A stretch of DNA of 52,864 bases from a virus (lineage: Duplodnaviria; Caudoviricetes), in the IMG/VR virus record IMGVR_UViG_3300030419_003351, positions 1-52,864 of that record; one strand, given 5' to 3'. A model generated the notes under the pieces. The model ran no database searches and had not been told where the DNA came from. It saw nothing but the letters and a program-made list of their open reading frames with translations. Of this stretch, positions 767 through 19,258 are shown piece by piece (within the stretch, counting starts at the first letter, position 1; every line of letters starts with the position of its first letter). The position numbers and the translations under genes are program-made.

Positions 767-850
767 TTTAATTCTCCTCGTTTGGTTGGTTGTCCTTTTA
801 TTATAACATCTATCGACCCAATGTCAAGAGGTGCTTTAATAAATTTTCAA

Positions 851-3128: not shown

Positions 3129-3211
3129 GTCCTAATCTCCTGTGGTTGGTTGGTTTTGCCCGTCGATTGGGCGATACTTCGATTATACCATAGTTATCGG
3201 TATTGTCAAGT

Positions 3212-3712
3212 CTAAACTTTATATTTTTTTATTTTTTTTCCTGTCGGTGCTAAATCTATATTTCTTTCACAGTCATCGTAGTAATATATCTTGTCATAAG
3301 ATTCCATGATAGAAAGTAAAACTTTTCTTTTGTTCTTTGCTATACTTTCTTTATCTCCACCAACACAGAACACTGTCTTTGTCTTTATATTATACTCACT
3401 TAACCATAGATTGATCGAATCTGATACATCATTCTCTCTAGCTGTAAGTATGTAGACACTATGTCCCTCCGCATGTACCTCTTTAGCGAGGTCTATCAGG
3501 AACGTAGGCTTGGCAGTTCTAATAAACTCAGAATTTCTAAATTCATCAAAGTTAAAGTATTCAAAATCTCCTAGTCTATACGAATTAAATTCTTGTGGTG
3601 TAATTTTAGCTACGAGTTTATCATGAGGCGTATGTCTCTCATATACATTGATCTTGCATGTGGTTTTAGCAAGTGTATCGTCAAAGTCAAATACAAACGC
3701 CTTTTCCATCAA
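3212..3712 (-). CDS. HAD-superfamily phosphatase
   Basis: Motif I FDFDDT, motif II ILTAR, C-terminal YYDD. Confidence 0.75.
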   Translation of the reverse strand: MMEKAFVFDFDDTLAKTTCKINVYERHTPHDKLVAKITPQEFNSYRLGDFEYFNFDEFRNSEFIRTAKPTFLIDLAKEVHAEGHSVYILTARENDVSDSINLWLSEYNIKTKTVFCVGGDKESIAKNKRKVLLSIMESYDKIYYYDDCERNIDLAPTGKKIKKYKV

Positions 3713-3942
3713 TCACAGTCCTCGCAAATTGGTGCGAACAAGACTAAATATCCAACCACAATGGCTGATGCTATCCATCCTCCTATAATTATATTTAACA
3801 CTCGATCTCCTCGATTAACATTAGCTGATTAACTTGATCTATTTCAATTATCTCATAGGAATGAACACCAACCGTGATGATGTCTCCTATATCATAACCA
3901 TCTCTTAGACCGTAGTAATATCTTACTGGTTCGCACATTTTT

Positions 3943-4140
3943 CTAAATCGTAAAGGTATTGTCTAACCTACTCCAGAACTCCCTATCAATATACTTGGAT
4001 AGCTCCAGAGAAATATCTTCTACTGTCCAATCTTTAGCCATCTCAAACTTATCCAGATCATCAAAGTCTTCTGTCTCTGGGTTTTCCGATATGGTTTCGA
4101 GATTCAATCTCATAGCGTGTTTAATCTTTTCCTCAAACAT
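3943..4140 (-). CDS. hypothetical protein
   Basis: 65-aa acidic ORF coupled to the upstream gene. Confidence 0.55.
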   Translation of the reverse strand: MFEEKIKHAMRLNLETISENPETEDFDDLDKFEMAKDWTVEDISLELSKYIDREFWSRLDNTFTI

Positions 4141-4552
4141 TGTTTAATCCCACTTCCTTTTTTAATTTGGCGACATCCTCTATGGAAAAGTCAATAGCTA
4201 AATCCCATATTTCTTCAACGTAAGAAGCTCTCCAGAAAATATCGTATGTTTCCGTAGGTGAGTCACCCCAACTCATACCTCCTGTAACAAGAATTTCGTA
4301 CTCTTTTCCTTCGGGAGTATAGGCTGTATCTGGAGCTACTTCTCTACCATATGCGGAACCGTTGGCTTCCACTACCGAATCAAGTAAGGACTGCTTAATA
4401 TAGTTTTCATCTTCGTCATCAAAAAATAAATCCTCACGGAGTTCCTCATACTGCTCCTGCGAAATATTATCAATAGTTTCTCTAAATTTTGTCTCACGCT
4501 CGCTAGTCATAGTAAACGAGGGAAACTTCTGCATCGTAAAATCAGCACCCAT
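4133..4552 (-). CDS. hypothetical protein
   Basis: Start MGADF after GGAG RBS; promoter at 4592-4619. Confidence 0.65.
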   Translation of the reverse strand: MGADFTMQKFPSFTMTSERETKFRETIDNISQEQYEELREDLFFDDEDENYIKQSLLDSVVEANGSAYGREVAPDTAYTPEGKEYEILVTGGMSWGDSPTETYDIFWRASYVEEIWDLAIDFSIEDVAKLKKEVGLNNV

Positions 4553-4727
4553 ATCATTCTCCAAAAAGTGTTAGTCGGCGGTTATACTTTAATTATATAG
4601 TATATATCGTCAATGTCAAGTCAAAAGTTTAGAAAAAAAAGAAAAAATCGCAACATAAGTCAAGAATAATACTATGGCTGATAAGAATGGTATTTGAACC
4701 ACTATAAAAAACGATAAAACAAAGATG

Positions 4728-4931
4728 TCATGCTTCGTCATTTGCATCCTCTATTTTCTGCAACGTCATCATTATCAAGGCAAGATCATCTATTGCTTGA
4801 TTATACTGCTTATCAGACCATCCCCATACTCTTTTTTGCACCTCATACAATGCCGTTCCTTCCGATCTATCTAGCATGTCTAGTGCTATTTGGAGAGAAC
4901 GAATTATATCCTTATTTTCACGCTTCTTCAC
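4728..4931 (-). CDS. hypothetical protein
   Basis: 67-aa ORF in the minus-strand run downstream of promoter 5121-5149. Confidence 0.5.
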   Translation of the reverse strand: MKKRENKDIIRSLQIALDMLDRSEGTALYEVQKRVWGWSDKQYNQAIDDLALIMMTLQKIEDANDEA

Positions 4932-5157
4932 CCAATAATTCCTTGTATCTACTATTTAACCGTATAATCTGTTTTTCTGCCTCCTCCGCTTCAGACTTGG
5001 CAAAAGCGTCATTCATAACCCTTTCAAAATAACGAATTGCTAGGTCGATCTGTTCCATTTCGTACTCTTTTGTGATTTTAGGCATCCGATAACTCCTTGT
5101 TAAAAAGTAAACCGATACTGATTATAAACTATGTTTCGTCTATTGTCAATGGGAAGT

Positions 5158-5535
5158 TTAGTGTTTTTTTAGGATTTTCAATAGTTGTTCTTTGCTTTGC
5201 CCTCCAGTATACCGATCCGTAACTTTCTCATCTTTTTCAAATATAATTGTAGGAATATATTTTATCTTATATTTTTCCTTTTCTTTTTTATCTTCATCTA
5301 CATCATAATACACTACATCAAATCTGCTAAGTTCTGCCTTAACTTCCTTGCTCTGAAGATTCCTCTTTGTTATCTTACAAGGAGTACACCAAGTTGCCCC
5401 AAAATATAGAAGCCGTGTTTTTTTGCTCTCGTCTTGAGATGCCTCCAATTTAATTACAGTAACTTCTCTGTGGTTCTGTATATTAGTTAAGGAACAGAAC
5501 ATTAAAAAACCAACACAAAATAAAAAACCTTTCAT
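5158..5535 (-). CDS. thioredoxin-family protein with N-terminal signal/anchor
   Basis: WCTPC active site, cis-Pro motif IPT, hydrophobic N-terminus. Confidence 0.8.
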   Translation of the reverse strand: MKGFLFCVGFLMFCSLTNIQNHREVTVIKLEASQDESKKTRLLYFGATWCTPCKITKRNLQSKEVKAELSRFDVVYYDVDEDKKEKEKYKIKYIPTIIFEKDEKVTDRYTGGQSKEQLLKILKKH

Positions 5536-5577
5536 AGCCTCGCTCCGTGTAAAATATCAGGACAATATTTATACACA

Positions 5578-5790
5578 TTACTCGTCGTAGTAGTTTAAGT
5601 TCGTATTCCTTGAATGTGGATTTGGAAGCATACTATTTGATCTTACGAGTCTGGTCATCCATAGCTCATAGCACTTGGCACACTTAACTATATGGCCTTT
5701 ATTAGTAGAAATTTTGTAATAGTCAGTCGTTTTCTCATCACAGTCTATACAGATAAGAACCTCTTTCTTTTTTTTATCTTTTTTCTCCAT
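5578..5790 (-). CDS. small Zn-ribbon-like protein
   Basis: CIDC...CAKC motif pair. Confidence 0.55.
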   Translation of the reverse strand: MEKKDKKKKEVLICIDCDEKTTDYYKISTNKGHIVKCAKCYELWMTRLVRSNSMLPNPHSRNTNLNYYDE

Positions 5791-5960
5791 AAAAAACTTT
5801 TTTCTCCTTTTTTGTTTAGAATAGGGGTTTTTATTTCATTGTATAATAGACTCTAAGGGACTCATATTGCACAGTATTTTGAACCTTTTAGTAATATATA
5901 ACAGCACCAAATAGGTAAGACATTACATTAAGAAATAACCTTAAAAATATGGGGTTTTAC

Positions 5961-5989
5961 TTGACAAATACCTTTTAATACTATACAAT
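5961..5989 (+). promoter_or_regulatory. sigma70-type promoter
   Basis: TTGACA-N17-TACAAT in the AT-rich divergent intergenic region. Confidence 0.55.
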
Positions 5990-6309
5990 ATATATATAAC
6001 AACACATACAAAAACAATCAAGTTTAGATAGGACATTTACCGATATAGAATTTAGAGTTTAACCTCGTATACCCGCAATAAGTAATTAATGGGTCATTTC
6101 CCCACAAAGTTGTGTCTAAAAGATAATATAATGGGACAAAAAGGGAAGAAGTTAAATCTTTGTTGAGCCATTTGGGACATTTTTAGATAATATAAGGTGT
6201 ATATCCAACGGGTTCAATGGCCTTACGGCCTTAAAGCAAGAATATTAAATATAAATTAAAGTTTAGGTTAGACTAATTGTCCTACTCAAACCCCAAAAGG
6301 TAAATTAAA

Positions 6310-6708
6310 ATGCCAATACAAATAGATTCCGAACTTTTCCTGCCCAAAATTCATAAGAAGTGTGATTCTAGAATGATGGGAAACGAGAGTAAGAGATTAT
6401 CAAGTGCGGTATTAGAAATTGCACAGGGATGGTTTGATGATCCTCCATTTAAGCGTAACAAAGAAATAGATACTCAGGTCGAATGTAGAATAGACTTAAA
6501 GTATTATATACTTGAGAAGATAAAACTAAAAGATAGAAAAAGTAAATTTTTTATTCCAACTTTTGTCTGGGTATTCATCGCCCAACAAGTAATAAGTTAT
6601 ATTGTAAAGTTACTAATTGAACATTATTGGACTCATAGGGGAGCAGATGGAACATTAAATCTTCATGAGCAAATTCTATCTGAGATACATGACGTTGATA
6701 TTGAATGA
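6310..6708 (+). CDS. hypothetical protein, possible single membrane helix
   Basis: 132 aa, AAGG RBS, hydrophobic stretch FFIPTFVWVFIA. Confidence 0.6.
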   Translation: MPIQIDSELFLPKIHKKCDSRMMGNESKRLSSAVLEIAQGWFDDPPFKRNKEIDTQVECRIDLKYYILEKIKLKDRKSKFFIPTFVWVFIAQQVISYIVKLLIEHYWTHRGADGTLNLHEQILSEIHDVDIE

Positions 6709-6764
6709 ATAGATAATGTGTATAGTCCTTCATAGCAAGATAAATTCTATGGGGGGCGGCACAC

Positions 6765-7133
6765 ATGAAGTTATTTTCTTCAATAAAGAAATATCTAACA
6801 GATATGAGAACAGTAAAGTATGATAAATTTATATTATTAGGTTTTATTTGGATTTGGTTAGTTAGTATGCTAGACCATTATGCCACAATAAAATTACAGC
6901 AAACAATATTAGAAGAAGAAAGGAATCCTCTTGGTTCTTTTTTAATCAATATTGACTCTGGTTCTGTCGCTCTATTCATGACAGTTAAAATGATGTGCCT
7001 ATGGTTTATTGCCTGTATCATATTATCTATATATCAGGAAAACAAAATTAAATCATATCTTTGTATAGTTGCATTAGGTATATGCCAACTTCTCTTACTC
7101 TTTTACTTTATGTGGGGACACCATCTGCTATAA
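6765..7133 (+). CDS. membrane protein (3 predicted TM helices)
   Basis: TM segments flanking an E-x-NP motif; preceded by TGTGTATAG. Confidence 0.65.
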   Translation: MKLFSSIKKYLTDMRTVKYDKFILLGFIWIWLVSMLDHYATIKLQQTILEEERNPLGSFLINIDSGSVALFMTVKMMCLWFIACIILSIYQENKIKSYLCIVALGICQLLLLFYFMWGHHLL

Positions 7134-7140
7134 ATCTCAA

Positions 7141-7310
7141 AATGGCTGACTCCACTCAATGGCACGACTCTTAGAGTATAAGGTACGACAATGATACCAA
7201 AGTCGCTGACTGTCTCTCATGGCCCGACTCTTTATAGATAAGATACGACATACTTACCAAAGTCGCTGACTACCAGCATTGGGGCGAGTCGGGAGACATT
7301 AGATATGACA
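7141..7310. repeat. three imperfect tandem 60-bp repeats built from ~20-bp GAC-centred subunits
   Basis: Rows 7141, 7201 and 7261 align column for column (GCTGACT...GG..CGA(C/G)TC...AG.TA(C/T)GACA); related unit at 7635-7713. Confidence 0.8.
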
Positions 7311-7379
7311 ATATATAGTAATTATATATGTACATAAAGAAAGCCCATACATCAGAGGATGCAGGGCTATTCGAGGCCA

Positions 7380-7544
7380 TTAGCCTTTAACAGTAGTTTC
7401 TATCCAGTAGTGATCTTCGCCAAGAGTATTAACTAAATCTTCAGCATCAGATTGTTCGTAATAAATCTCTACTAGATCATCATTCTTATTTAATACTACA
7501 TAAACATAATTGTGTGATGGTGGTGGTTGGTTTTCATATACCAT
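7380..7544 (-). CDS. small hypothetical protein (54 aa, MVYENQPPP...)
   Basis: AGGAG RBS and promoter 7579-7607; below the ORF-track cutoff. Confidence 0.6.
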   Translation of the reverse strand: MVYENQPPPSHNYVYVVLNKNDDLVEIYYEQSDAEDLVNTLGEDHYWIETTVKG

Positions 7545-7809
7545 ATCATACTCCTAAGTGTGGTTGGTTTATATGTTAATTATACTATATACATCGTCAT
7601 TTGTCAACCCTTAACTTTAATAAAAATCCAAAATTGGCTGACTGGTGCTTATGGGGTGCGACTCTTTATTATTTAGGCACGACAAATTGGCTGACTCTAG
7701 GAAGTGGCTGACTCTAAGGCAATACCTAACTGCTCTGAAAAGAAGGGAAGAGACAAGAACAGGGAGGATGACGGAGGGGGAAGTTGCGGCGGTAAAAGCG
7801 AAAAAATAT

Positions 7810-7824
7810 TGGCACGTTGTTTGC
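7810..7824 (+). promoter_or_regulatory. sigma54 (-24/-12) consensus site
   Basis: TGGCACG-TTGT-TTGC. Confidence 0.5.
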
Positions 7825-8010
7825 GGGGGACAATTTTGTAGGCCGCCCGCATTTGCGGGTTTGTCAACCCCTATTCCCTAAAAACTTCAGAAAAAATACC
7901 AATAAAAAGAGCGACAATAAAAAGTAGAAGAAAAAACATATTTCACCCCATAAATAAAAAACCCCACCGGTAGACAAGTCCACCGGCAGGGATCTCGAAA
8001 GGGGTACTGA

Positions 8011-8937
8011 TTAAGCGGCCAATTCCAGTGCGAGCCTTTCAGCGTCCCGCACTTCTTTGGAATTAGAAGCCCGAAGGATTCTATCAAAGTCACCCTTGAA
8101 ACCTTCTTTGGCTTGTGCATCATGCTGGACAAATCCCTGAATGGCGTTATACGCTTCCCAAGCGGAAACAGTTTCAACCATAGCAGGACGGCCAGTGATG
8201 TTACGCTCTTTATTGAGACGCTTCCAGATTGCCTCAGTACGATTTTGGTGAGTCGTCACCGCCCGTACTGCTTGACCAGTTGCGGCTAACGCAAGCTGTT
8301 CTGGACTTGGTTGACCGTAAATCTGATTAAGAAAATCAGTCATGCGAACCTCAGTGGATTCGAGACGGTCAATAACGTCGGTCAGAGTTGACCAGCTATT
8401 TTTGAGAGTCTCAAACGTAGCGATTAATTCGTCCATGTTGGAACGCAAGCCGGAAGTGTGACGAATGGAAACGGTTGTACCGTTGACCATACGCATCATA
8501 GCAAGATTGCTACACGCATCACGGAAATAGCCCATAGTAGCGGTAAACGCTTTACCATCATAACCGGCGTTAATCATCACGCGAGGCCATACGTTATCCG
8601 TATCACGATCCTTATAGATCGACCGTCGCTGTTCAGCGGTCGGTTGAATAGAAACGTAATGCCCATTTCGGAAGTGAGTATTGCAAGCGATCTCACCGTC
8701 AAACGCTTCGCCAGCGGCATCGACTAACGCACAAACGTCATCAGTCGTATGGGGAACGTAGCGAGGTGAAACGGATTTCACGCCCTTGAGATAACCCGTA
8801 TCAGAACGGAACAAACCGTACTGATCGGTTGGCAAAACCTCCGTACCCATGACGGCGGATAGCGGATATTTTTCAACGTCGAAATTGAAGTCAGAACGAA
8901 CGGAAGCGGAAACGTCTTGTGCTTGAATGTTACTCAT
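8011..8937 (-). CDS. DUF932/DUF945-like phage protein
   Basis: LFRSDTG..L..VS.RY, N.YDG, RxxCxN (RDACSN), IRHT, SAWEAYNA motifs; start placed after GAAAGG RBS. Confidence 0.7.
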   Translation of the reverse strand: MSNIQAQDVSASVRSDFNFDVEKYPLSAVMGTEVLPTDQYGLFRSDTGYLKGVKSVSPRYVPHTTDDVCALVDAAGEAFDGEIACNTHFRNGHYVSIQPTAEQRRSIYKDRDTDNVWPRVMINAGYDGKAFTATMGYFRDACSNLAMMRMVNGTTVSIRHTSGLRSNMDELIATFETLKNSWSTLTDVIDRLESTEVRMTDFLNQIYGQPSPEQLALAATGQAVRAVTTHQNRTEAIWKRLNKERNITGRPAMVETVSAWEAYNAIQGFVQHDAQAKEGFKGDFDRILRASNSKEVRDAERLALELAA

Positions 8938-9118
8938 AGTAAACCCTTTCAAAATTGTGAAACTAAATCTTACACTCTCATTATACTATATATCGGCTAG
9001 ATGTCAAGCGATTCTTTAATCTTTTTTGGACTTTTTTTATTTTGGACTTTTTTGGCCGATTGTAGATTTTTCCTATTGACAAACCGGATTTTGCGGGCAG
9101 CCCCCAAAATATTTCCAA

Positions 9119-9251
9119 GGTCAACCGGCGACCCTCATGTTGGCGATGAGAGATCATTTATCTCCTGTTATCCCGCCGCCCTCTCTCACCTTACAGTTTA
9201 CCGCTGTTAGCGTAAGCGACGGGCAGGCAACCAACATAAAGGTCAACCGGC
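9119..9251 (-). ncRNA. candidate multibranched structured RNA
   Basis: 14-bp closing stem 9130-9143/9231-9244 plus inner stems; imperfect pairs are G-U only on the minus strand. Confidence 0.5.
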
Positions 9252-9268
9252 ATCTCTTGAAAGGAATA

Positions 9269-9499
9269 CTAGTCCTCGTGAGGCATCGTGCAATATACCT
9301 CGTAAGGTGTAGCGGCATAGGTCATTTGTGAATGGTCATCTTCCCACCATCCTACAAAGCCCTTTACCCCACCGGCAGAAGCAACTTCAAAACAGGCGAT
9401 GCGGTCGTTCGTTTGCTCCGCTAATTTACAGGTGCCTTCTTGACGAATCATTTTTTTTACAAAGCTATTAAATCTAGTAATACTTCCTACTTCGTCCAT
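9269..9499 (-). CDS. hypothetical protein
   Basis: 76-aa ORF with RBS, in operon with 9509..9976. Confidence 0.6.
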   Translation of the reverse strand: MDEVGSITRFNSFVKKMIRQEGTCKLAEQTNDRIACFEVASAGGVKGFVGWWEDDHSQMTYAATPYEVYCTMPHED

Positions 9500-9508
9500 G
9501 ATAATCCC

Positions 9509-9976
9509 CTAATGAAAAAATGGTGGTTTGTGACTGAAGGCCAACACCCTATTGTCAAGGATTGACAAGTCGGCATAGTCAGCGTTCTCTATTGGGCTTG
9601 CGTCATACTGCTTGATGAAGGTGTCGCAGGTGTATGGGTTGTAGTAGACTTGCTCCCATCGTGTTTCACCGTTTTCGATTTGCTGATCAGTGAGATGACC
9701 GTCAACCTTTTGGTCGGTCGTACGAGTATCAACCACATAGCCCTCAACAAACGCATGTACGTTCTTCTTCTGTTCATCCCTGACTCTCCTTTGTCCAGCC
9801 TTGGACACAATGAATTGACAACTTCTTAATGTAACATTTTCTGCATGACAGCGAACGATGCCGCCTTGCTTTACACTGTAGCAATCCCGATGCAGATTAC
9901 GATATACTCGCACCTTCTTTGTGGTGTCGATATGCTCTGCAATCTCAAAGCTCTTTTGTGTGCGTGGTTTCTTCAT
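9509..9976 (-). CDS. conserved phage hypothetical protein
   Basis: VYRNLH..CYSV, KNVHAFVEG, YNPY motifs; AAAGGA RBS; promoter 10003-10030. Confidence 0.75.
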   Translation of the reverse strand: MKKPRTQKSFEIAEHIDTTKKVRVYRNLHRDCYSVKQGGIVRCHAENVTLRSCQFIVSKAGQRRVRDEQKKNVHAFVEGYVVDTRTTDQKVDGHLTDQQIENGETRWEQVYYNPYTCDTFIKQYDASPIENADYADLSILDNRVLAFSHKPPFFH

Positions 9977-10082
9977 AACTTTTCCTTTCGTGTTATACTA
10001 CCATTATAATATATATATCGTCATTGTCAAATAAAATCTTCACATAAAACCATGTTTTTTGCCGGATTAATCTAAAAAGTTT

Positions 10083-10098
10083 TGGCACGACTTTTGCA
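10083..10098 (+). promoter_or_regulatory. sigma54 (-24/-12) consensus site
   Basis: TGGCACG-ACTT-TTGCA, full match to the consensus. Confidence 0.55.
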
Positions 10099-10217
10099 CC
10101 CCGCCCCCAAAATTTTATAAAACGAACAATACAATCTCAATACACAAAACCAAAACCGGCACGCAAATAAGATTCCATAATAATATTTTATATTCTAAAG
10201 ACATAACCAACACCTAT

Positions 10218-10251
10218 AAAAAACCGGCGACCCCCGGAGGGGTCAACCGGC
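10218..10251 (-). terminator. intrinsic terminator
   Basis: Minus strand: GACCCC-TCCG-GGGGTC hairpin, extended by flanking CCGG pairs, followed by a T-tract. Confidence 0.7.
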
Positions 10252-10268
10252 ACACACAACACGAATGA

Positions 10269-10547
10269 CTAAGCCGGTAGGAACGGCGAAACCAGAGAAC
10301 CCACAAACGGGATTTTGATTCCCCAATTCTGACGCTCTTTGTAGAACGCCTTCATACCGTCACGGGTTTGCACCGTGTCAAGGTCTCTCGACCGTTTGAA
10401 CTCGGGGTCATGCTTGCGGTATGCTCCCGTGATGGTTTCCCAACTGAGCGGGTGCTTGTTGGTATTGCGTCGGGATTGTAAAACACCCCAACGAAACTTT
10501 GCACCATCAACCGGCTGTTTGTAACTAAATAAAACTAAACTTTTCAT
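10269..10547 (-). CDS. hypothetical protein
   Basis: 92 aa, AGGAG RBS. Confidence 0.6.
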   Translation of the reverse strand: MKSLVLFSYKQPVDGAKFRWGVLQSRRNTNKHPLSWETITGAYRKHDPEFKRSRDLDTVQTRDGMKAFYKERQNWGIKIPFVGSLVSPFLPA

Positions 10548-10620
10548 CTTTGATTCGCTCCTGCAATTAAAAAACTTAAACCACTAAATAACGCTGCTAT
10601 TAGAAATAGATATAAATATA

Positions 10621-11403
10621 TCAACTCATCTTCACCTTTCTGCTATAGGAATGTTTAACCTTATCTCGTTTGAGAACCTTTAACGCTTCCGCTGCTCTTG
10701 AATCTTTTGGCTGTGTGCCATGAAGCAATAAAGCAAAATCGTTGTTTCGTAATGATGGACGGGCTGCGTGACTATCATCATGGTCGATGTCTAACCCTAA
10801 CGCTACCGCTTCCGCTTCGCTATATACTACCTTGCTTGAACGTAAATCAAACTCTTCGATTAAGTGGTCATGTGTTCCACCGTATGAAGCAGTTAAAACA
10901 AAGTTATGCAAAACAGGAAACTCGTTGATTGCAAGCCAGAACCTTAGCGATTTGGTATAGGCGTAGAATAGCGTATTAGGATTGAGTAGGGCGATTGTAT
11001 ACCACGCTTCCATGTACTGCTGATTGAAGAAATCACCCGCAACATGAATCCGAACAATACCGGCATTGGCGGGTAATGATTGATTGATAACGTCAACCAT
11101 CTCACCGCATGATAGTTTACGCAACACGTCAAAATTATGCTTGCGTAAATTGTAAACGCCGTTATACTGTACTTCCTGAGAAGCTGAGAAGCAACGGAAC
11201 TCTGTATCTTTTCCGTCTTTGATTTTACGTTTGCCGTTCGGTTGGACTACTGCCTTTGATAGGCATTGTTTGGCAAAGGGGCAAGAGAAGCCACTGAGAA
11301 GGTCAAGAGAATAAACTTTTTTCTTGTCGGTCAAATATTCCGATAGTTCGGAAACTTGTTTTAGTGCTTCGATTTTAGCATTGGCATTTGAGAATTTTAG
11401 CAT
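10621..11403 (-). CDS. GP88-like phage protein (Cys-containing)
   Basis: SCPFAKQC, RIHVAGDFF, FYAYTKS motifs typical of the GP88 family. Confidence 0.7.
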   Translation of the reverse strand: MLKFSNANAKIEALKQVSELSEYLTDKKKVYSLDLLSGFSCPFAKQCLSKAVVQPNGKRKIKDGKDTEFRCFSASQEVQYNGVYNLRKHNFDVLRKLSCGEMVDVINQSLPANAGIVRIHVAGDFFNQQYMEAWYTIALLNPNTLFYAYTKSLRFWLAINEFPVLHNFVLTASYGGTHDHLIEEFDLRSSKVVYSEAEAVALGLDIDHDDSHAARPSLRNNDFALLLHGTQPKDSRAAEALKVLKRDKVKHSYSRKVKMS

Positions 11404-11500
11404 TGTGATTCGCTCCGTGTGTTGTGTGATACTTCTCTATTATACTATATATTATCGGAATGTCAAGAGGTAATCTTTAACTTTTTTCCGTTTTTTTGTA

Positions 11501-11655
11501 TGGCGGACGGGGTGGGGAATCGAACCCCACACATGTAGGCACTGAGTCGGATTAGGTCTGAGCAACCCCGCAACTTTCTCGCCCATCGCGTCCGATAGCC
11601 TTTACTCGTTGTCAATCCTGTCAGTGTCTCATCCTACAAGACCACTTCCCGAACA
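11501..11655 (-). ncRNA. tRNA-like structured RNA with 3' CCA, no canonical anticodon arm
   Basis: 3' end GTGGGG-TTCGATT-CCCCAC-CCCGTCC-GCCA; long interrupted helix; dedicated promoter 11661-11688; no ORF. Confidence 0.7.
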
Positions 11656-11786
11656 CTTCCATTATATATTATATCGGCTATTTGTCAAGGGGAACTTCAG
11701 TATTTTCTCAAAAAAAAGCAAAAAAAAATTTTGCGGCCCGCCCACAAAACCTGCTTTGTCAACCCCAAAACCTTAAAAAAATCGTG

Positions 11787-11820
11787 AAAAAGGGAAAGGG
11801 GCATTGCTGCCCCGATCCCC
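11787..11820 (-). terminator. intrinsic terminator
   Basis: GGGGCA-GCAA-TGCCCC hairpin followed by TTTCCCTTTTT. Confidence 0.7.
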
Positions 11821-11844
11821 CACAACACGAAAGGTTAGCTTTGT

Positions 11845-12048
11845 TTAGAGTGAAGCCACACACTTTGCAATGGACAATGAGCGAATTTGCCCATTATTTT
11901 CCTGAACGGTGATACCCCGTCCACTCGGCCCTGTAAAGCTGGCGAGCTTTTTGCCCTCAACTTTTCGCAGGACATTCTTTTTTCCTCCTACAGGATAGAG
12001 GAAAGAAACTTTGCGTTCGTTACGCTTACTATAGAGATCGTTCAACAT
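11845..12048 (-). CDS. hypothetical protein
   Basis: 67-aa basic ORF, last gene before the terminator. Confidence 0.6.
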   Translation of the reverse strand: MLNDLYSKRNERKVSFLYPVGGKKNVLRKVEGKKLASFTGPSGRGITVQENNGQIRSLSIAKCVASL

Positions 12049-12193
12049 TGATAAACCTTTCTACTTGTGAAAAAGAAAACTGTTTGACACCTTCCGCAGT
12101 GTCGATCAAAACATGGTCGCTCTTTATGGCAACAACCGTTCCAGCGGGAAATTTAGTACCGATTCCCACAATCGGCTTTTGACTACTACTCAT
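12029..12193 (-). CDS. small hypothetical protein
   Basis: Start MSSSQKP overlapping the upstream stop. Confidence 0.55.
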   Translation of the reverse strand: MSSSQKPIVGIGTKFPAGTVVAIKSDHVLIDTAEGVKQFSFSQVERFINVERSL

Positions 12194-12422
12194 CTTCTGA
12201 TGACTCCTCTTGTGCAAGTTTATGAGCTTCCTCGACTCGTGAAGCCGCAAGTTCTGTCAGCTTATCGCCCAACTTCTTGTGAAGCTGTTTCATGACTTCC
12301 TCTGACATCGTGAAGACAACCTTGTCTTCTCCTGCGTAAAGCTCTACTTCGTTGTCGGACTTCCAAGTGGAAACATAGCTGTGTGAGATCTGTCCAAAAT
12401 CTACTGTTTGTGAAATCTTCAT
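12186..12422 (-). CDS. hypothetical protein
   Basis: 78 aa, AAGGAG RBS. Confidence 0.65.
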   Translation of the reverse strand: MKISQTVDFGQISHSYVSTWKSDNEVELYAGEDKVVFTMSEEVMKQLHKKLGDKLTELAASRVEEAHKLAQEESSEDE

Positions 12423-12444
12423 AAGACTTCTCCTTTCAAAAATG

Positions 12445-12530
12445 TTGCGGATGCAGTGGCTCTTAACCCTAACTCACTTGCTTGATATTATTCGCCTCAA
12501 GACGGGCGGGTGAGTTCCAGTTCCGTGTCG
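12445..12530 (-). ncRNA. candidate pseudoknotted 5' leader RNA
   Basis: Helix 12471-77/12510-16 enclosing crossed pairs 12481-85/12497-501 and 12493-96/12505-08. Confidence 0.4.
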
Positions 12531-12566
12531 TGTTACACTACCATTATACTATAATTATCGTCAATG

Positions 12567-12734
12567 TCAAGCGGTTTCTTTAGCAATTTCCAGAATAATT
12601 TTAGATTCTTTTGCAAGTTCTGAATCTTTGTCGATATACAGAGAACCTGCTACTCCCTGTTGAGCAGCACCTACGCTTGCCGCATAACGAATTTTACTTT
12701 TAGTTTCTTTGTCTTTGAGGAATGTTAAACTCAT
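12567..12734 (-). CDS. small hypothetical protein (55 aa, MSLTFLKDKE...)
   Basis: AAAGG RBS, open frame; not in ORF track. Confidence 0.55.
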   Translation of the reverse strand: MSLTFLKDKETKSKIRYAASVGAAQQGVAGSLYIDKDSELAKESKIILEIAKETA

Positions 12735-12753
12735 AACTTTCTACCTTTCAATG

Positions 12754-12906
12754 TTAAACATCTGCTTGCCACGCACGACGTTGTGCTTGGCGTGTACGGA
12801 TTCGCTTAGGCCGGTTGTCATGCACTTGATGCGTGTTGGCCTGATGGCCGACTGACGGTTTCCCGACCTTAATCTTGAGCGTTATTGTTTTCTTGTTGTT
12901 TCTCAT
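12754..12906 (-). CDS. small basic protein (50 aa, MRNNKKTITLKIK...), probably leaderless
   Basis: ATG 6 nt downstream of the -10 box at 12913-12918. Confidence 0.55.
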   Translation of the reverse strand: MRNNKKTITLKIKVGKPSVGHQANTHQVHDNRPKRIRTRQAQRRAWQADV

Positions 12907-12989
12907 ACTCTTATTATACTATATATATCGTCGTTGTCAAGTCTTTTCTTTAATCTTTTTTGAATTTTTTGCTGACTTTGGCTGACTGG

Positions 12990-13268
12990 TCTATATCTGG
13001 CGGTTCTCGGGAGAGATAGGATAAGACAAGCATCACGATGGCAGGCCATTCCATCTGCACCGTAGTTTGCTGCGTCCCTTTTTAAGTTCACTAGGAACCG
13101 GAGTTGACTTACGCCTCGATGCACCCCTAAATCGTCTTACCGATCCTGTCCTTACGTAATGGCTACAAAGGCCTTAAAGGGGTTGTGATGTTGTCTCTGT
13201 GTAAGACGCCTCTTTCGAGGAACCAATTCCAGCGGCGTAGTTCCAACTGGGTTGTAGCTGACTTACTC
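12990..13268 (-). ncRNA. candidate large structured ncRNA
   Basis: Own promoter 13273-13300, no credible ORF, several 6-8 bp complementary blocks and a CCTC-GAAA-GAGG hairpin. Confidence 0.55.
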
Positions 13269-13421
13269 CTCCATTATAATATATATCGGCCAAATGTCAA
13301 GGGTATCTTTACAAAATTCTCTAAAAAAAAGAAAAATTCTTTGCGTCGTAAGTCCTTTAATAGCAAGGGTTTACAGCAAATTGCGGGCAGCCCCCATTTT
13401 TTGACTGGCTACCGATAGGAG

Positions 13422-13580
13422 CTAATTACGTTCACGGCGAACCAAACCCAACCGGCGGATAAGACGAACCATAAAACTGATTTTAGTCTGTCGTTCATTT
13501 TCCAATCTCCTTTTTTCAATATTTTCTAATCGTTGATAGTAACGTGATAATTCTACTGCGTGTGCTTTTCTCATTCTCAT
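13422..13580 (-). CDS. small basic hypothetical protein
   Basis: Start MRMRKAH after a G-rich RBS. Confidence 0.45.
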   Translation of the reverse strand: MRMRKAHAVELSRYYQRLENIEKRRLENERQTKISFMVRLIRRLGLVRRERN

Positions 13581-13652
13581 ATTAACCCCGACACTATACA
13601 ACCGGCAACGAAAGCCAACAAACAAAACCATAACGCATTCATCTGCTCTTTA

Positions 13653-13940
13653 TTATATTTCATTTTTCCATTCCTTATAATCTTCAACTGTCATAAAGGT
13701 CATCTGTCCGGCGTGATTCAACAACCACGGAAAACCAAATTCATCTTCAACCCATAGGTCTAACAATTCTAAATTTCCACTCGCTGCGGTTTCTTCCATA
13801 ACCTCACTAGGCACGGCAACCTTCATAGAGCTAATCGGCCCAGAACTTTTACCTTCCCATTCTTCTTGAGGTTTTAGAATTCTTGCAAGCGTAACCATCA
13901 TCACGCCCATACCATAAACAGGACTATAATCATCGTGCAT
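13653..13940 (-). CDS. hypothetical protein
   Basis: Start MHDDY after GGAGG RBS. Confidence 0.6.
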   Translation of the reverse strand: MHDDYSPVYGMGVMMVTLARILKPQEEWEGKSSGPISSMKVAVPSEVMEETAASGNLELLDLWVEDEFGFPWLLNHAGQMTFMTVEDYKEWKNEI

Positions 13941-13941
13941 C

Positions 13942-14307
13942 TTATTCTTCCTCCAAGTCATCAGCGTCAATCATACCACTATTAACCATACCGCCAACGA
14001 AAGCCATCATATTTTTATGAAGCTGGATTTCATCCTTCTCGTTTTCGCTATAGTCTAATTCACAATCAATATCACGACCATTAACCTGTTTGCGTAATCG
14101 TTCAATATTACGAGCCTTTAACGCTTTAAGTTTTTGGTGTGCGGTTTCCGTATCCGCTTCATCTTCGCACATCTCATTTAATCGTGCAAGCGTGCGACCA
14201 CCACGAACATCATCATGGAACTTTTTGGGAAGCCACTCATTAGGCACGACAATCATTTCCTGAGTAGCGACTTCCAACTCTTTCAACATTTCTTCAACGC
14301 TTTTCAT
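13942..14307 (-). CDS. hypothetical protein
   Basis: Start MKSVEE after AAGGA RBS; promoter 14336-14364. Confidence 0.65.
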   Translation of the reverse strand: MKSVEEMLKELEVATQEMIVVPNEWLPKKFHDDVRGGRTLARLNEMCEDEADTETAHQKLKALKARNIERLRKQVNGRDIDCELDYSENEKDEIQLHKNMMAFVGGMVNSGMIDADDLEEE

Positions 14308-14839
14308 AATCAATTTCCTTTGTGTTATGCTTCCCATTATAATATATATCGGCACATTTGTCAAGAGGTCTTAAACTCTTTTTCAATTTTTTCCAATCTT
14401 TTTTCTATGTCGTTCCATATGAACAAACCACCGAGGAAACCACCCATGAAGCAAATGCAAACTGTAACCATAATTAAACCTTTCATTAATTGTTATACTA
14501 AGAGTATACCATAATCATCGGCATTTGTCAAGGGGTATCTTAACTAATTTTCATAAATTTTTAGTATTTTTGAAACAGCCCAGCCGACTGGCAAAAGCAA
14601 CGCCGGAACGACCACGAACATCATAAACTCATCATTTTCAAATAAACTCATTTCTTCACCTTTGCAAATTTAGATTGTGCTAGTTTTTTGTGTGTCTGTT
14701 TGAGAGTACCCTTTGCAAGGCATCCCGTGAATATATCCGCGTGCCGCTTGAGACTCGCGTTGTGTTTGGCTATCGCTATTTTTTTATTGTTTAGCATGTC
14801 TTATCCTTTCCTGCTATATATATATTATCGCACATGGGT

Positions 14840-14858
14840 GTGACACGTTAGGTCACTG
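14840..14858. promoter_or_regulatory. palindromic operator-like site GTGAC-N7-GTCAC, copy 1
   Basis: 19-bp identity with 16838-16856. Confidence 0.55.
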
Positions 14859-14938
14859 CCGACTGATTTTTTCAAAAAAAAGGGAAAAACTTTTTGCGGG
14901 CCGCCCGCAATTTTGTCAAGCCCCCTAGAAGGGGGAGG

Positions 14939-15127
14939 TTAGCAGAAAGCACACTCGTCTAATGTCGGCGTGTACTCTCCGCCTTGCTTGCCGCACTTGG
15001 GACAGATGTCGCTTTCATCTAGGACGATGAACAAATCATCCTCTAGCTCCATCTCCTCCTCGCACCACATCCAGTACTGCAAGGAACCGTCATCTTCGGG
15101 TTGAAAATTTTCGTCGTGATCGTTCAT
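14939..15127 (-). CDS. small acidic Zn-finger-like protein
   Basis: CPKC...CAFC with acidic N-terminus. Confidence 0.55.
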   Translation of the reverse strand: MNDHDENFQPEDDGSLQYWMWCEEEMELEDDLFIVLDESDICPKCGKQGGEYTPTLDECAFC

Positions 15128-15217
15128 GAATCCACTCATCAAACAAGCCAAGTAAAACGGGAAAGGTGACGGCGGCAACCGTCGCCCATTCCCAAAAGGT
15201 AATCATTTCGCTGCTCA

Positions 15218-15502
15218 TCAGTCCCAATCCCTCAAAGCGTAGTTTTCCCATTCGGCGGCGTACATATCCACCGGATCGTAGTCCGTGTAATCGTCGTCCC
15301 ACGGCTCCTGTGGGTACAGACTCGGATCTTCATCCATCTCCGCATAGAAGTCACGATGCGGATCGAAGTCCGAAGGCTCAAGCTCAGGCTCCGCAGCCTC
15401 TTGCTCCTCAAGCCAAGCGGAGTACTCCTCCCAATCGGCCTGTGTAGGCTCGTAGGAAGCAAGTTCGTCGGACTGGATAGAAGTGTCAAATTTAGAGAAC
15501 AT
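15218..15502 (-). CDS. highly acidic hypothetical protein
   Basis: 94 aa, about one third D/E; GAAAGG RBS; promoter 15543-15570. Confidence 0.7.
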   Translation of the reverse strand: MFSKFDTSIQSDELASYEPTQADWEEYSAWLEEQEAAEPELEPSDFDPHRDFYAEMDEDPSLYPQEPWDDDYTDYDPVDMYAAEWENYALRDWD

Positions 15503-15666
15503 AGAAAAACCTTTCAAAAAGTGATGTGTTTTGTATAACCCCATTATACATAATATCGGCAGAATGTCAAGGGGTTCTTTAGAAAAAAATCAAAGTTTTT
15601 GGTAATTGAGTGATTTCGACAGAGCTTACCAAACTCCACACCCCCGAAGGGGGACGGTGCGATCAA

Positions 15667-15882
15667 CTATTCCTCTTCAGGAAACATAGCGTCGAAGCAA
15701 GTATCGCAGGTTTCGGAGATTAACATCTCTCGATCCTCTGCACTCAGGTACGGCATAGCCGCCTGAATTAACTCGCCCTCTTGCCAGCGTTGCCAATCGT
15801 TAGCATTGAAGCTAATCTTTTGACACTCGCCGCACAAGCGACACTGAGCGTTGACCGTCACGTTCAATCGTGTTGCGATCAT
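15667..15882 (-). CDS. Zn-finger-like protein, probably leaderless
   Basis: CRLC...CDTC; ATG 6 nt downstream of the -10 box at 15889-15894. Confidence 0.65.
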   Translation of the reverse strand: MIATRLNVTVNAQCRLCGECQKISFNANDWQRWQEGELIQAAMPYLSAEDREMLISETCDTCFDAMFPEEE

Positions 15883-16163
15883 GTCTACATTATACCACAA
15901 AAAGTTAATCTTGTCAAGGGTAAAACAAAAGAATTTCAAAAAATTATTGTAAAACTTCTGCACCCAAAAAACCAACAAAACAAGCCATCAACAGTAAAAC
16001 AAAAAACGTCATATCAACTTCCTCCTTTATATAATATATATCGGCACAAGTCAATAGCGATCTTGAGAAAAAATCAAAAAAACAGCAAAAAAATTTTTGC
16101 GGGCGGGGCACAATTTTGTCAAGCCCCCTATAAGAGGGCCTGAGCTATGTCGGAATTCTTAGG

Positions 16164-16445
16164 CTACGACGGCAGGCATCCGTCAAGGATACCGCCGTGA
16201 GCGTCAAGCTCTGCCTGTACTACTTCAACCGGCACCCAACCATAAACGGTTTCGGTGTAGTCGTGATCGCCAAAGCATTCTGCATAGCTGCGTAGCTCTG
16301 CTGTCTTGGGCGTAGTAGATGGAAAGCCACACTCTACCGTAACAGGTACGCCATCGGTGTTACGCTGTGAGTATGCACCTTCGTGAGCCTGTACGCTAAT
16401 GTTGAAGCCATCGGTGCAAGTGATTCTAGGATTGTGAGAGAACAT
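16164..16445 (-). CDS. conserved phage hypothetical protein
   Basis: C.DGF.ISVQA...VECGFPS...VYGWVP...HGG; start after GAAAGG RBS. Confidence 0.7.
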   Translation of the reverse strand: MFSHNPRITCTDGFNISVQAHEGAYSQRNTDGVPVTVECGFPSTTPKTAELRSYAECFGDHDYTETVYGWVPVEVVQAELDAHGGILDGCLPS

Positions 16446-16542
16446 ATTAAAACCTTTCAAGTTAAAAGAAAAACCGGAATCTTGAATAGCCTTAACCGGC
16501 GGGCTATGCTTGCGACTAGGGCAAGGCTTGCGGGTTAAACCC

Positions 16543-16782
16543 TTAACCACCTGAATCAACTCGGTAGGTGATACCGCACTCGTTACAAGTGTGTTGATTG
16601 TAACACGTACCAAGATTGGTACGAGTCATATTGTAATCTCTTACAATTTCCGGCGTACGAGTAATGACACCGTTCACAGTACTGCTCATGATAGTCTCAC
16701 GTTCAGTACCACACTCGGCCAAGTGCCTAGTGTATTCTTTTGGCTGTTCTTTCCAGCCATTCATAGTTCCTAAATCAATCAT
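16543..16782 (-). CDS. hypothetical protein with C-terminal CxxC
   Basis: Start MIDLG after AAGGA RBS. Confidence 0.55.
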   Translation of the reverse strand: MIDLGTMNGWKEQPKEYTRHLAECGTERETIMSSTVNGVITRTPEIVRDYNMTRTNLGTCYNQHTCNECGITYRVDSGG

Positions 16783-16837
16783 AACAATTCCTTTCTTTTG
16801 TGTTGTGTTTGTCATATTATTATTATCGTCTATGGTC

Positions 16838-16856
16838 GTGACACGTTAGGTCACTG
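16838..16856. promoter_or_regulatory. palindromic operator-like site GTGAC-N7-GTCAC, copy 2
   Basis: 19-bp identity with 14840-14858. Confidence 0.55.
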
Positions 16857-17067
16857 GAACGTACTTTCCTACAATTTTTTTCCACTTTTTCATAACGTAG
16901 TCATATTGGCCGGTTGTCTCTGGATTGCTGATGCAGTTGCCAGCTTCGTTGACACTACTGCAAATGATGTATTTGCCGTAGGTGTTATGACGCACCAAGT
17001 ACCGCATACCGGTTGGGGTGTCTTTGATCATTCGGATCTCGTAGGGTTTCATTCCGCGTAGTAACAT
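16846..17067 (-). CDS. hypothetical protein
   Basis: 73 aa, AAGGA RBS, promoter 17093-17121. Confidence 0.6.
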   Translation of the reverse strand: MLLRGMKPYEIRMIKDTPTGMRYLVRHNTYGKYIICSSVNEAGNCISNPETTGQYDYVMKKWKKIVGKYVPVT

Positions 17068-17130
17068 TTTATTTCCTTTGTGTTATATTTTAAGTATACC
17101 ATATAAATCGGCTTTTGTCAAGCCCAATCT

Positions 17131-17307
17131 TTATTTATTTATGGTATTTTGTAAGGTTTTTTTTCTGCCCCACAATCGTTGCAGGTCATTCATTAGACAG
17201 TTTTTATTCCACTGTCCTAATTCCTTATTGTAACGAATCAAAGTTTTTTCGATTCGTCGGTCAATTTTGAACAGTTCTAGTTTAGCGTTTTGTTTTGTAA
17301 GAGTCAT
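17131..17307 (-). CDS. small helical protein, paralogue A
   Basis: MTLTKQNAKLELFK...ELGQWNKNC...LQRLW; promoter 17333-17361. Confidence 0.7.
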   Translation of the reverse strand: MTLTKQNAKLELFKIDRRIEKTLIRYNKELGQWNKNCLMNDLQRLWGRKKTLQNTINK

Positions 17308-17652
17308 TTTATTTCCTTTCGTTGTGCTTTTCATTATACTATACTTATCGGCTTTTGTCAAGGGTATTCTTTAATTATTCTTAAAGTTTTTTTAATTTAT
17401 TTTTTATTGCCGATTGTTATTTCCTTATTAATTATATCGACATTATACCATAAAACCTTTAACCTGTCAAGGCCGATTGAGCAATTTTTTATAAAAAAGA
17501 CAAGATTTTTTTTTGCGGGCGGGGCACAATTTTGCTGTGTATACATACCCCCATAGCCCCTATCAGGTTTCTTAGGCTGTGACACACCATGTGGCCTAGT
17601 CACTCGCTCCCTAAATAGCCTAGACACTCGTGTTAGATAGGCTAAGACAAGC

Positions 17653-17880
17653 CTACTCATTAGCTGTGCCGTACTTCTCGAAGTACCGAGCCATCGCATC
17701 CATCTTAGATTGTGGTACTTCCACCACACTGATAACCTCACAGCTATCATGGAAATCGTTATAGCGGAACACTGTTTCACCGCTATCATTCTGACGCAAG
17801 CTGTCGCGGCTTACGTGCTTGTGTGTAACTTCATTGCCTCTGATTGGACAAACGATTGTAACGTCAAAGTGTTTAGTCAT
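17653..17880 (-). CDS. hypothetical protein
   Basis: 75 aa, AAAGGG RBS. Confidence 0.6.
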   Translation of the reverse strand: MTKHFDVTIVCPIRGNEVTHKHVSRDSLRQNDSGETVFRYNDFHDSCEVISVVEVPQSKMDAMARYFEKYGTANE

Positions 17881-17917
17881 GTATTCCCTTTCGTTGGAAT
17901 GTTGTTTAGTTAGTTAG

Positions 17918-18115
17918 TTAGTTAAAGATAAATACGATACTATCATCACTGTGTATGATACGAAGTAAAGCATTCTTTACTTTCCATAAGTGTTCAAGTT
18001 CACCTTGAACGATTGACTTATTCCAATCGCCCAATTCATTCTTGTGTTCAACAATCTTATCTTCGATTGCTTTATCAGTTTTAGTAAGTTCGATTTGAGC
18101 CTGTGCTTTAGTCAT
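17918..18115 (-). CDS. small helical protein, paralogue B
   Basis: MTKAQAQIELTK...NELGDWNKS...LEHLW; promoter 18159-18187. Confidence 0.7.
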   Translation of the reverse strand: MTKAQAQIELTKTDKAIEDKIVEHKNELGDWNKSIVQGELEHLWKVKNALLRIIHSDDSIVFIFN

Positions 18116-18994: not shown

Positions 18995-19258
18995 ATGCCC
19001 AAAAAGAAAAAACCAAACAGAAAACAAATCGAATCTTTATTGACCGCTAAATCCAGCGAGCAACTAAAAAGAGAGATAGAAGAAGAACTCGCCCAAGAGA
19101 TAACCGACCCAGTAAAGTCCCTAGCTGATCTTATTGCTGAAGAAGAAGAGCGAAAGAAGGAAGACAAGATTATCGCCAAACAACGCTACAGAGAGCAGGA
19201 ATTAGAGACGATTAACTTGATGGACAGAGATGAACCAAAAGAAAGGTTTAGATTTTAA
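18995..19258 (+). CDS. charged hypothetical protein
   Basis: Start MPKKKK after AGGAGG RBS; first gene of the right arm. Confidence 0.65.
   Translation: MPKKKKPNRKQIESLLTAKSSEQLKREIEEELAQEITDPVKSLADLIAEEEERKKEDKIIAKQRYREQELETINLMDRDEPKERFRF

Follow-up and report, generated by a model that had tools for sequence, protein, structure and literature searches.

Between positions 9119 and 13300 of virus record IMGVR_UViG_3300030419_003351, whose 52,864 bases (rated 33% complete) form the window analysed here, four structured RNA elements, R1 to R4, lie on the minus strand, at about the places where an initial annotation had put a multibranch RNA, a CCA-ended tRNA mimic, a pseudoknotted leader and a ~280-nucleotide (nt) knotted RNA. 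The elements are conserved and mutually unrelated, and we lean on balance towards the view that they are four separate modules (five with an add-on to R4) which represent new RNA families and probably act in trans early in infection. Comparison across relatives establishes that the RNAs adopt their predicted folds, that selection keeps the pairings, and that R2 and R4 each stand alone behind a consensus sigma-70 promoter, filling a whole promoter cassette as had been proposed. The elements and their neighbours, all on the minus strand, are listed below in the direction of reading (ORF, open reading frame; aa, amino acids).

13273–13300, minus strand: promoter of R4, consensus sigma-70 (TTGACA-16-TATAAT).
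12975–13268, minus strand: R4 as a whole, made up of add-on module, core and 3' tail.
13201–13268, minus strand: R4 add-on module (modA), 68 nt, a small multi-hairpin RNA with a GNRA-capped hairpin, identified by alignment and nhmmer.
13015–13200, minus strand: R4 core, about 185 nt, with a terminal helix formed by its 5' and 3' ends closing a multi-helix junction, identified by covariation.
12971–13014, minus strand: R4 3' tail, with a small variable hairpin, two AGTCAGC repeats and an A-run up to the next promoter.
12543–12570, minus strand: consensus promoter of the R3 leader and an operon of three small ORFs.
12440–12540, minus strand: R3, a conserved leader motif with a long hairpin insert in the window copy, identified by recurrence and by covariation of its closing helix.
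12186–12422, 12028–12192 and 11845–12048, minus strand: the three small ORFs of the operon that R3 leads (78, about 54 and 67 aa).
11661–11688, minus strand: consensus promoter of R2; transcription is predicted to begin 7 nt beyond the -10 box, at the first base of the acceptor stem.
11500–11654, minus strand: R2, a tRNA-like RNA of about 155 nt, beginning 7 nt behind the -10 box of the promoter at 11688.
10621–11403, minus strand: GP88-family protein (PF17338), encoded in the cassette that follows R2 and used as the anchor for fetching related loci.
9269–9499, minus strand: 76-aa ORF upstream of R1, with no family match.
9119–9262, minus strand: R1, a long branched hairpin in the 3' untranslated region of the 76-aa ORF, identified by fold energy and conservation.

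Two syntenic relatives rated complete measure 166.8 and 173.8 kb, which, together with the completeness rating, suggests that the window covers about one third of a large phage genome of ~160–170 kb. The relatives were drawn from marine metagenomes, and the terminase is at most 26% identical to that of any cultured phage; judged by its sequence, the source is a large uncultured marine phage with no close cultured phage. The closest cultured relatives of GP88 belong to Synechococcus phages (37–42% identity), psbA was found in none of four related records, and megablast and blastn searches of the region and of R4 against cultured phages returned no match in a set from which close records may be missing. 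Related loci (L numbers below) were fetched by way of GP88 in batches of 5, 80 and 27; among 111 loci obtained in this way, the R4 core occurs in 32 and R2 in 39, and each is present as a single copy in one complete relative. The cassettes are mosaic and reshuffled between relatives, with the RNA modules moving as cassettes.

All genes within 800–18000 lie on the minus strand, and perfect TTGACA-16/17-TATAAT promoters number 18 on the minus strand of the whole window (from 827 to 17470) and none on the plus strand. Those with a 16-nt spacer near the RNAs start at 13300, 12940, 12570, 11688, 11466, 10030 and 9007, and promoter-like sites in 7000–16000 number 32, compared with 16.9 ± 4.9 expected. 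The plus-strand block begins, at the strand switch, with a gene for a phage sigma factor (Sigma70_r2, 19258–19779, plus strand). From this layout we infer that 800–18000 is an early region, putatively read by the host RNA polymerase.

R2 carries the strongest comparative evidence. Its parts are an acceptor stem, a stemless D-loop-like UGGUC, a 6-base-pair T stem with the loop UUCGAUU, a discriminator G and a CCA, G-CCA occupying 11500–11503, and the RNA ends in GCCA in the window, as expected of the CCA-ended tRNA mimic noted earlier. A long helix (P2a-P2b-P2c) replaces the anticodon arm, a bulge in it (AUGAGA) pairs with the hairpin loop GCUCA to form a pseudoknot, and an internal hairpin carries a GACG loop. 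The minimum free energy (MFE) fold already pairs the 5' and 3' ends beside the T arm and contains a long-range helix. In an unfitted MAFFT alignment of 12 homologues, 14 of 37 consensus pairs show compensatory changes. The covariance model built from this alignment retrieved strong copies as well as a divergent subfamily, R2b, at 25–32 bits. When 30 homologues were fitted to the model, which favours pairing and so gives no independent test, 42 pairs were recovered with 96.0% of cells paired, and 29 of the 42 were compensatory, against 14.9 ± 1.8 in shuffles (0/500) and 2–12 in slid controls; the unfitted result points the same way. The acceptor stems of different subtypes have wholly different letters and yet remain paired (GGCGGGA/UCCCGUC, ACUGGAG/CUCCAGU, GGCUUG/CAAGCC), and covariation is seen in both the T stem and the acceptor stem (helices 1 and 8). 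The pairing of bulge and loop, UGAG/CUCA, becomes UAAGC/GCUUA in five of five subfamily-2 sequences (G-C to A-U), a single concerted change, which means that the pseudoknot rests on one evolutionary event together with invariance. Many G-U pairs of R2, as of R4, would be A-C mismatches on the opposite strand. At the 3' end, counted on aligned rows of the 30 homologues, 17 have CCA, 12 CCU and one CCG, with CC in all 30.

Searches of viral contigs with the exact 28-nt pattern of the R2 3' end gave no matches. A looser pattern matched at least 119 stretches, and among the 79 listed the model recognised one real R2 (in L154); run on 89 loci, the model gave four matches, three of them from loci fetched by an R4 pattern and the fourth again L154. 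Where the flanks were long enough (81 non-redundant loci), the position immediately before GP88 is taken by R2 in 24 loci, by a genuine tRNA-Asp(GUC) in six, by R2b in one and by none of these in 50. One promoter cassette can thus be filled alternatively by R2 or by a real tRNA, and a functional link between R2 and GP88 was rejected, as R2 directly precedes GP88 in only 24 of the 81. The tRNA-Asp(GUC) genes in the R2 slot (L089, L090, L091, L094, L095 and L096, near 4736–4868) have their own early-type promoter; in L041 a tRNA-Asp(GUC) at 1830–1904 directly follows R2b. Related records carry 3–19 canonical tRNAs elsewhere, and the window has none.

We compared R2 with named families. Its acceptor stem stacked on a T arm, T-loop, discriminator and 3' CCA are those of the acceptor/T-arm half of a tRNA, whereas the fold backed by covariation puts a long helix, with no 7-nt anticodon loop, where the cloverleaf has an anticodon arm. 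ARAGORN reported no genes in the window and none in the first five related loci, and the Rfam tRNA model RF00005 gave no matches on G000 (seven candidates scored). R2 was accordingly rejected as a tRNA. The best sub-threshold Rfam scores, 17 bits for tRNA-Sec (RF01852; 17.0 bits against a threshold of 47, E 0.44, and so below the gathering score) and 15.6 bits for mascRNA, are both carried by the T arm. In one of nine subfamily-2 copies (L041, 1745–1818) ARAGORN called a 'tRNA-SeC(tca)', in a register that differs from the supported fold; this call is probably false.

With its acceptor stem, T arm, stemless D-loop and helix 2, R2 also has the architecture of the tRNA-like domain of transfer-messenger RNA (tmRNA), and marine phages commonly carry two-piece tmRNA genes behind early promoters, according to the available part of PMC9004378. 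One might therefore take R2 for a working, very small tmRNA, or for a remnant still rescuing ribosomes, the more so as some copies contain short frames (GAC AAC GAG UAA in the window, and GCU CAG ACC UAA). The evidence largely refutes this idea, which we regard as most improbable: no subtype has the G3-U70 pair, position 3-70 being U-U in the window, C-G in L002, U-A in L004 and C-G in subfamily 2; no tag frame is conserved among the 30 homologues, read on aligned rows; the first short frame lacks a stop in L003-type copies, and in L009 a compensatory change in P2c turns the stop of the second, UAA, into UUA. ARAGORN found no tmRNA, and the best Rfam tmRNA score was 10.2 bits (tmRNA_permuted) against a threshold of 47. 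R2 was thus rejected as a tmRNA.

The T arm and acceptor 3' strand of tRNA or tmRNA genes are frequently duplicated in phage attachment sites. R2 could on this account be an attachment-site leftover or a decaying tRNA pseudogene, with the other elements being DNA repeats or scars of shuffling, and the mosaic, reshuffled cassettes of the relatives would fit. We disfavour this explanation, to the point of finding it scarcely credible, since the acceptor 5' strand covaries with the 3' strand, which argues that the whole R2 domain is maintained; moreover, no tyrosine integrase was found in five related records, two of them rated complete, the G-U pairs are strand-specific, and conservation is higher in the elements than in the adjacent genes.

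The second well-supported RNA is R4. Across about 20 loci its core keeps 90–95% nucleotide identity, against only 73–81% for the GP88 proteins encoded there, and besides the terminal helix the core contains a hairpin with a GUAAGA loop and a loop–loop pairing between AGGCC in the P1 loop and GGCCU in the P3 hairpin loop. The tool consensus from 19 sequences has 33 pairs, eight of them compensatory. With the terminal helix and the loop–loop pairing added by eye, there are 47 pairs with 95.7% of cells paired, and the loop–loop pairing is present in 19/19 sequences, which bears out the earlier description of a knotted RNA. Compensatory changes are seen at eleven of the 47, where shuffles give 3.2 ± 1.4 (0/500) and slid controls 1–6, the latter being a weaker check because the structure was drawn from the alignment used for counting. 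A second covariance model yielded 32 matches in 90 sources, many of only 87–143 nt, and the kernel consists of the terminal helix, a hairpin loop with AAAGCC, optional inserted domains and a hairpin with the loop UAUGGCUUC. In a model-fitted alignment of 28 sequences, the two loops read AGGCC/GGCCU in five, AGGCC/GGCUU in two and AAGCC/GGCUU in 13, the remaining eight not being alignable there. A coding reading of R4 was ruled out by indels of 1–2 nt inside the conserved core, and the frequency of G-U pairs places the RNA on the minus strand.

The add-on module was found by nhmmer in 10 loci besides the window, and in L073, L074 and L075 it lies away from the core; its hairpin reads CCUC-GAAA-GAGG in the window and CCCC-GAAA-GGGG or CCCC-GCAA-GGGG in relatives. 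No hairpin-plus-U-run terminator is present in the 3' tail. Rfam, run on R4 alone at E ≤ 10, produced nothing resembling it; in the whole window there were no matches at gathering score and nothing relevant at E ≤ 10, and the riboswitch models matched neither the window nor the region nor any single element, all in keeping with the earlier remark that none of the four RNAs was recognised as a named family. When the R4 core was searched against bacterial genomes, the only match was L239, a contig of 152,655 bases in a metagenome-assembled genome (MAG) titled SAR202 cluster bacterium. The 8-kb locus of this contig shares synteny with the early region of the window and holds the R4 add-on module, the R4 core, R3, R2 and nine consensus promoters. 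L239 is probably a phage contig binned with the SAR202 MAG, and as the locus is itself a syntenic phage region it provides a weak host lead at most.

R1, the multibranch RNA, is a stable branched hairpin with an MFE of -61.2 kcal/mol (z -5.61; none of 200 shuffles reached this stability) and is 92–97% identical in 10 loci. Its outer stem, CCGG-UU-GACC.../...GGUC-G-CCGG, is also the outer stem of a plain terminator at 10228–10262. In the window the tail is UUGACCUUGG, with no U-run, and in the L022 homologue the stem is followed by U8. From these features R1 appears to be an elaborated terminator or 3'-end stabiliser, with a near-invariant interior that goes beyond such a reading.

R3 has the motif NGGAACUGGA(G/A)C, a variable hairpin and G(C/U)UAGGGUUAAGAGCCACUGCAUCCN. 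Its single-sequence fold is no better than shuffles (z +0.89), and its support lies in recurrence and covariation: a core of 45–50 nt is found in 15 loci, the closing pair covaries in three variants (GGGA/UCCC, CGGA/UCCG in the window and AGGA/UCCU in L083), and the inserted hairpin differs in sequence and length between loci. In most loci R3 lies ~12 nt before the Shine-Dalgarno sequence of a conserved ORF. The earlier call of a pseudoknotted leader held as regards a conserved leader; the putative H-type pseudoknot, placed within the long insert, was seen by eye only. Nor is R3 solely a leader, because it also stands alone: an R3-like core lies ~20 nt before the subfamily-2 tRNA-like RNA in L035 (1026–1232) and L048 (397–600), and in L083 (3425–3762) one lies ~150 nt before R2b with a consensus promoter between them. 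RNA modules have been recombined in differing orders among the relatives.

These observations bear on the main rival explanation, that the RNAs are cis elements and not trans effectors: in a tightly packed early region, R2 would be a tRNA-like punctuation site at which RNase P or RNase Z cleaves read-through transcripts, R4 would be a structured 5' block shielding or regulating the cassette after it, R1 would terminate transcription and R3 would be an operator of translation. It owes its weight to the absence of any intrinsic terminator between R2 or R4 and the next promoter, and it is favoured further by the terminator-like outer stem of R1, by the U8 in L022 and by the usual place of R3 before a Shine-Dalgarno sequence. 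We nevertheless consider it unlikely for the set as a whole. A strong promoter belongs to each of R2 and R4, and the gene downstream is served by a different one; a mere cleavage site could do without 155 nt of folded RNA, a conserved pseudoknot and invariant loops; elements like R3 also occur by themselves, preceding R2b in L035 and L048 and the next promoter in L083; and the R4 core moves independently of its neighbours. For R1 and R3 taken singly, a cis role is more likely than that of an effector.

The trans-acting reading that we favour would run as follows. The four RNAs would be made right after infection. R2 would be a stable tRNA mimic, an acceptor/T-arm minihelix with a stemless D-loop and a long helix at the place of the anticodon stem, matured by the host enzymes that act on tRNA ends (RNase P where a leader exists, 3' trimming and CCA addition); it would not decode, and would work in trans, tying up a host factor that reads the elbow which acceptor and T arm form in tRNA or tmRNA. 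As for the R4 core, its compact build of terminal helix, junction and kissing loops may serve to bind a protein or ligand. R1 would serve as an elaborated terminator or 3'-end stabiliser, and R3 as a 5' leader operator able to stand alone. Two small RNAs from the tRNA region of T4 (PMC3014915) and the tmRNA genes of marine phages (PMC9004378) set precedents for this reading.

Several observations weigh against this reading. The single-sequence fold energies of R2 (z -0.25) and of full R4 (z -0.05) equal those of shuffles, and support for both RNAs comes from comparison, not thermodynamics; of the covariation counts, just the 14/37 of R2 and the 8/33 of the R4 core are unbiased, the other pair statistics (those from the 30-sequence R2 alignment, the 47-pair structure of R4 and the 28-sequence loop count) not being independent. 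None of the 50 predicted pairs of R1 shows a compensatory change. In R2, the acceptor stem of the window subtype has two conserved mismatches (2-71 and 3-70), the subfamily-2 T loop is non-canonical (UGCAAAU and similar), and the CCA is kept in only 17 of the 30 homologues. The proposed mechanism of R2 is wholly a matter of deduction, as the partner itself is deduced, and genes for the candidate partners SmpB, Ro60/TROVE and RtcB were each found in none of five related phage records. The missing terminators after R2 and R4 allow for read-through and action in cis. In one marine metatranscriptome, contigs from relatives lie over R3 and the R4 core and none over R2, and as one contig extends into the promoter, 33 nt beyond the start site, the signal may be DNA carry-over or read-through. 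The expression look-up took in small shares of three runs and is evidence neither way.

The initial annotation had suggested that the RNAs form one module and act, for example, as decoys for tRNA-cleaving or RNA-sensing defences; neither the single module nor the decoy role gained direct support. In such a scheme R2 would absorb tRNA-attacking toxins, or the RNAs would block an RNA-sensing system. Strong early promoters and the surrounding small early ORFs are in line with it, R2 keeps exactly the acceptor/T-arm part and the 3' CC (30/30 homologues), a real tRNA-Asp can take the same slot, and there is a precedent for RNA in counter-defence in the phage anti-CRISPR AcrIIIA1, which works with tRNA and tmRNA fragments, as the accessible portion of PMC11662646 describes. 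Against this, nothing ties the RNAs to any defence system, and no defence or anti-defence gene was identified beside them. A role as decoy for anticodon nucleases, the best-known tRNA-directed defences, is excluded by the lack of an anticodon arm and loop in R2; toxins directed at the acceptor end are conceivable targets. Altogether we give the decoy explanation little credence.

A bolder version of the trans-acting reading, which we put forward as speculative and rather improbable, is that this abundant marine lineage runs part of its early takeover by RNAs in place of proteins. R2 might then be a tmRNA descendant reduced to the tRNA-like domain, uncharged and untranslated, that jams a reader of the elbow or 3' end (SmpB and ribosome rescue, or acceptor-end toxins), and the R4 kernel might be a new ligand- or protein-binding fold or a pRNA-like multimer assembled through its complementary loops.

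Other features of the window lie outside these questions. GC-rich hairpins with U- or A-run flanks (UUUUGGGGGCUGCCCGCAAAA and variants) stand upstream of several early promoters (9095–9115, 11726–11752, 13375–13396, 14894–14910), and hairpin and promoter together form cassette borders resembling the promoter/stem-loop units of T4-type phages. Of the heptamer AGTCAGC there are 20 copies, a number that none of 100 shuffles attained (5.5 ± 2.4 expected); most are in the early region on its minus strand (7145–7713, 12971–12987, 13257), with two copies at the end of R4, and the heptamer lies inside a 60-nt tandem repeat at 7159–7271 (1.9 copies, 83% matches); the motif CGTAAGTC is not enriched in the window (two matches, 1.2 expected). 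The 78-aa and 67-aa ORFs behind R3 matched no PHROG family in the scan. Further ORFs encode a GDP-mannose 4,6-dehydratase (21016–22170, plus strand), a thioredoxin (5158–5535, minus strand) and, in the structural block, a protein of 2,500 aa (34381–41883, plus strand). GP88 gives a confident predicted model (predicted local distance difference test score 88), and radical-SAM enzymes make up 13 of the 16 structures most similar to it, among them spore photoproduct lyase (Z 7.0), viperin (6.4), QueE (6.3) and TYW1 (5.8), a likeness that serves as a lead only because all Z are below 8. Cysteines C41, C47 and C71 are invariant in 22 homologues, C41 and C47 following the first strand, the cluster-binding place of radical-SAM enzymes; Foldseek alone gave weak TIM-barrel rows only.

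To our knowledge, few phage non-coding RNAs have a proven role. Here at least two RNA families with solid comparative support and strong early promoters of their own occur in dozens of marine metagenome contigs. R2 is an example of the tRNA-like half of the tmRNA plan occurring by itself in a phage, and it provides a concrete means of asking what host factors read the tRNA elbow in the course of an infection; the R4 kernel suits structure probing and binding screens because it is compact (87–185 nt) and its inserts reveal dispensable parts. Should R2 or R4 be an early effector, an RNA layer would be added to phage takeover in the ocean; should they be cis elements, they would still be useful annotation markers for an uncultured lineage. 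The literature search found no paper that names R1–R4; a survey of IMG/VR reports 8,495 candidate structured RNAs (PMC10690425), and these motifs may be among them.

Among known systems, tmRNA (SsrA) comes closest to R2: in both, the paired ends form an acceptor stem on a T arm (with the loop UUCGAUU in R2), a stemless D-loop keeps its GG, a long irregular helix takes the place of the anticodon stem, and the 3' end is G-CC(A). R2 differs in its length of ~155 nt, tmRNA usually being larger, in lacking G3-U70, a tag frame and the usual series of pseudoknots, and, in subfamily 1, in a T stem and acceptor stem that add up to 13 base pairs. YrlA, a bacterial Y-RNA-like non-coding RNA, also mimics the tRNA elbow; its tRNA-like part is internal and its ends form the Ro-binding stem. 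The topology of R2 is inverted with respect to YrlA, its ends being the acceptor stem, and R2 has no Rfam match and no Ro60/TROVE gene in the five related phage records. RNAC and RNAD of phage T4 have tRNA-like ends. Also called species 1 and 2, they are small stable RNAs from the tRNA region, with no role assigned to them in the available parts of two papers, of 2010 and 2022 (PMC3014915, PMC9697503). They and R2 are all small phage RNAs; they differ in that the T4 RNAs are classed as late in the accessible part of PMC9697503, whereas R2 stands behind an early-type promoter, ~12 kb from the tRNA cluster in the complete relative G001.

R4 recalls the pRNA of phage phi29 and the three-way-junction riboswitches with kissing loops (purine class) in its terminal helix made from the ends, its junction and its complementary, covarying 5-nt loops. 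It differs from them in having no Rfam match and no expression platform (a terminator or start-site hairpin) after it; moreover, the phage of the window has a normal large terminase, and the R4 loops may pair either within one molecule or between molecules. As for the cassettes, T4-type phages shuffle their promoter/stem-loop early cassettes (PeSL) modularly, and the early region of the window resembles this arrangement in its many small early units with near-identical promoters of their own, reshuffled between relatives. It differs in that some cassettes of the window consist of RNA only, and in a promoter sequence and a lineage unrelated to those of T4.

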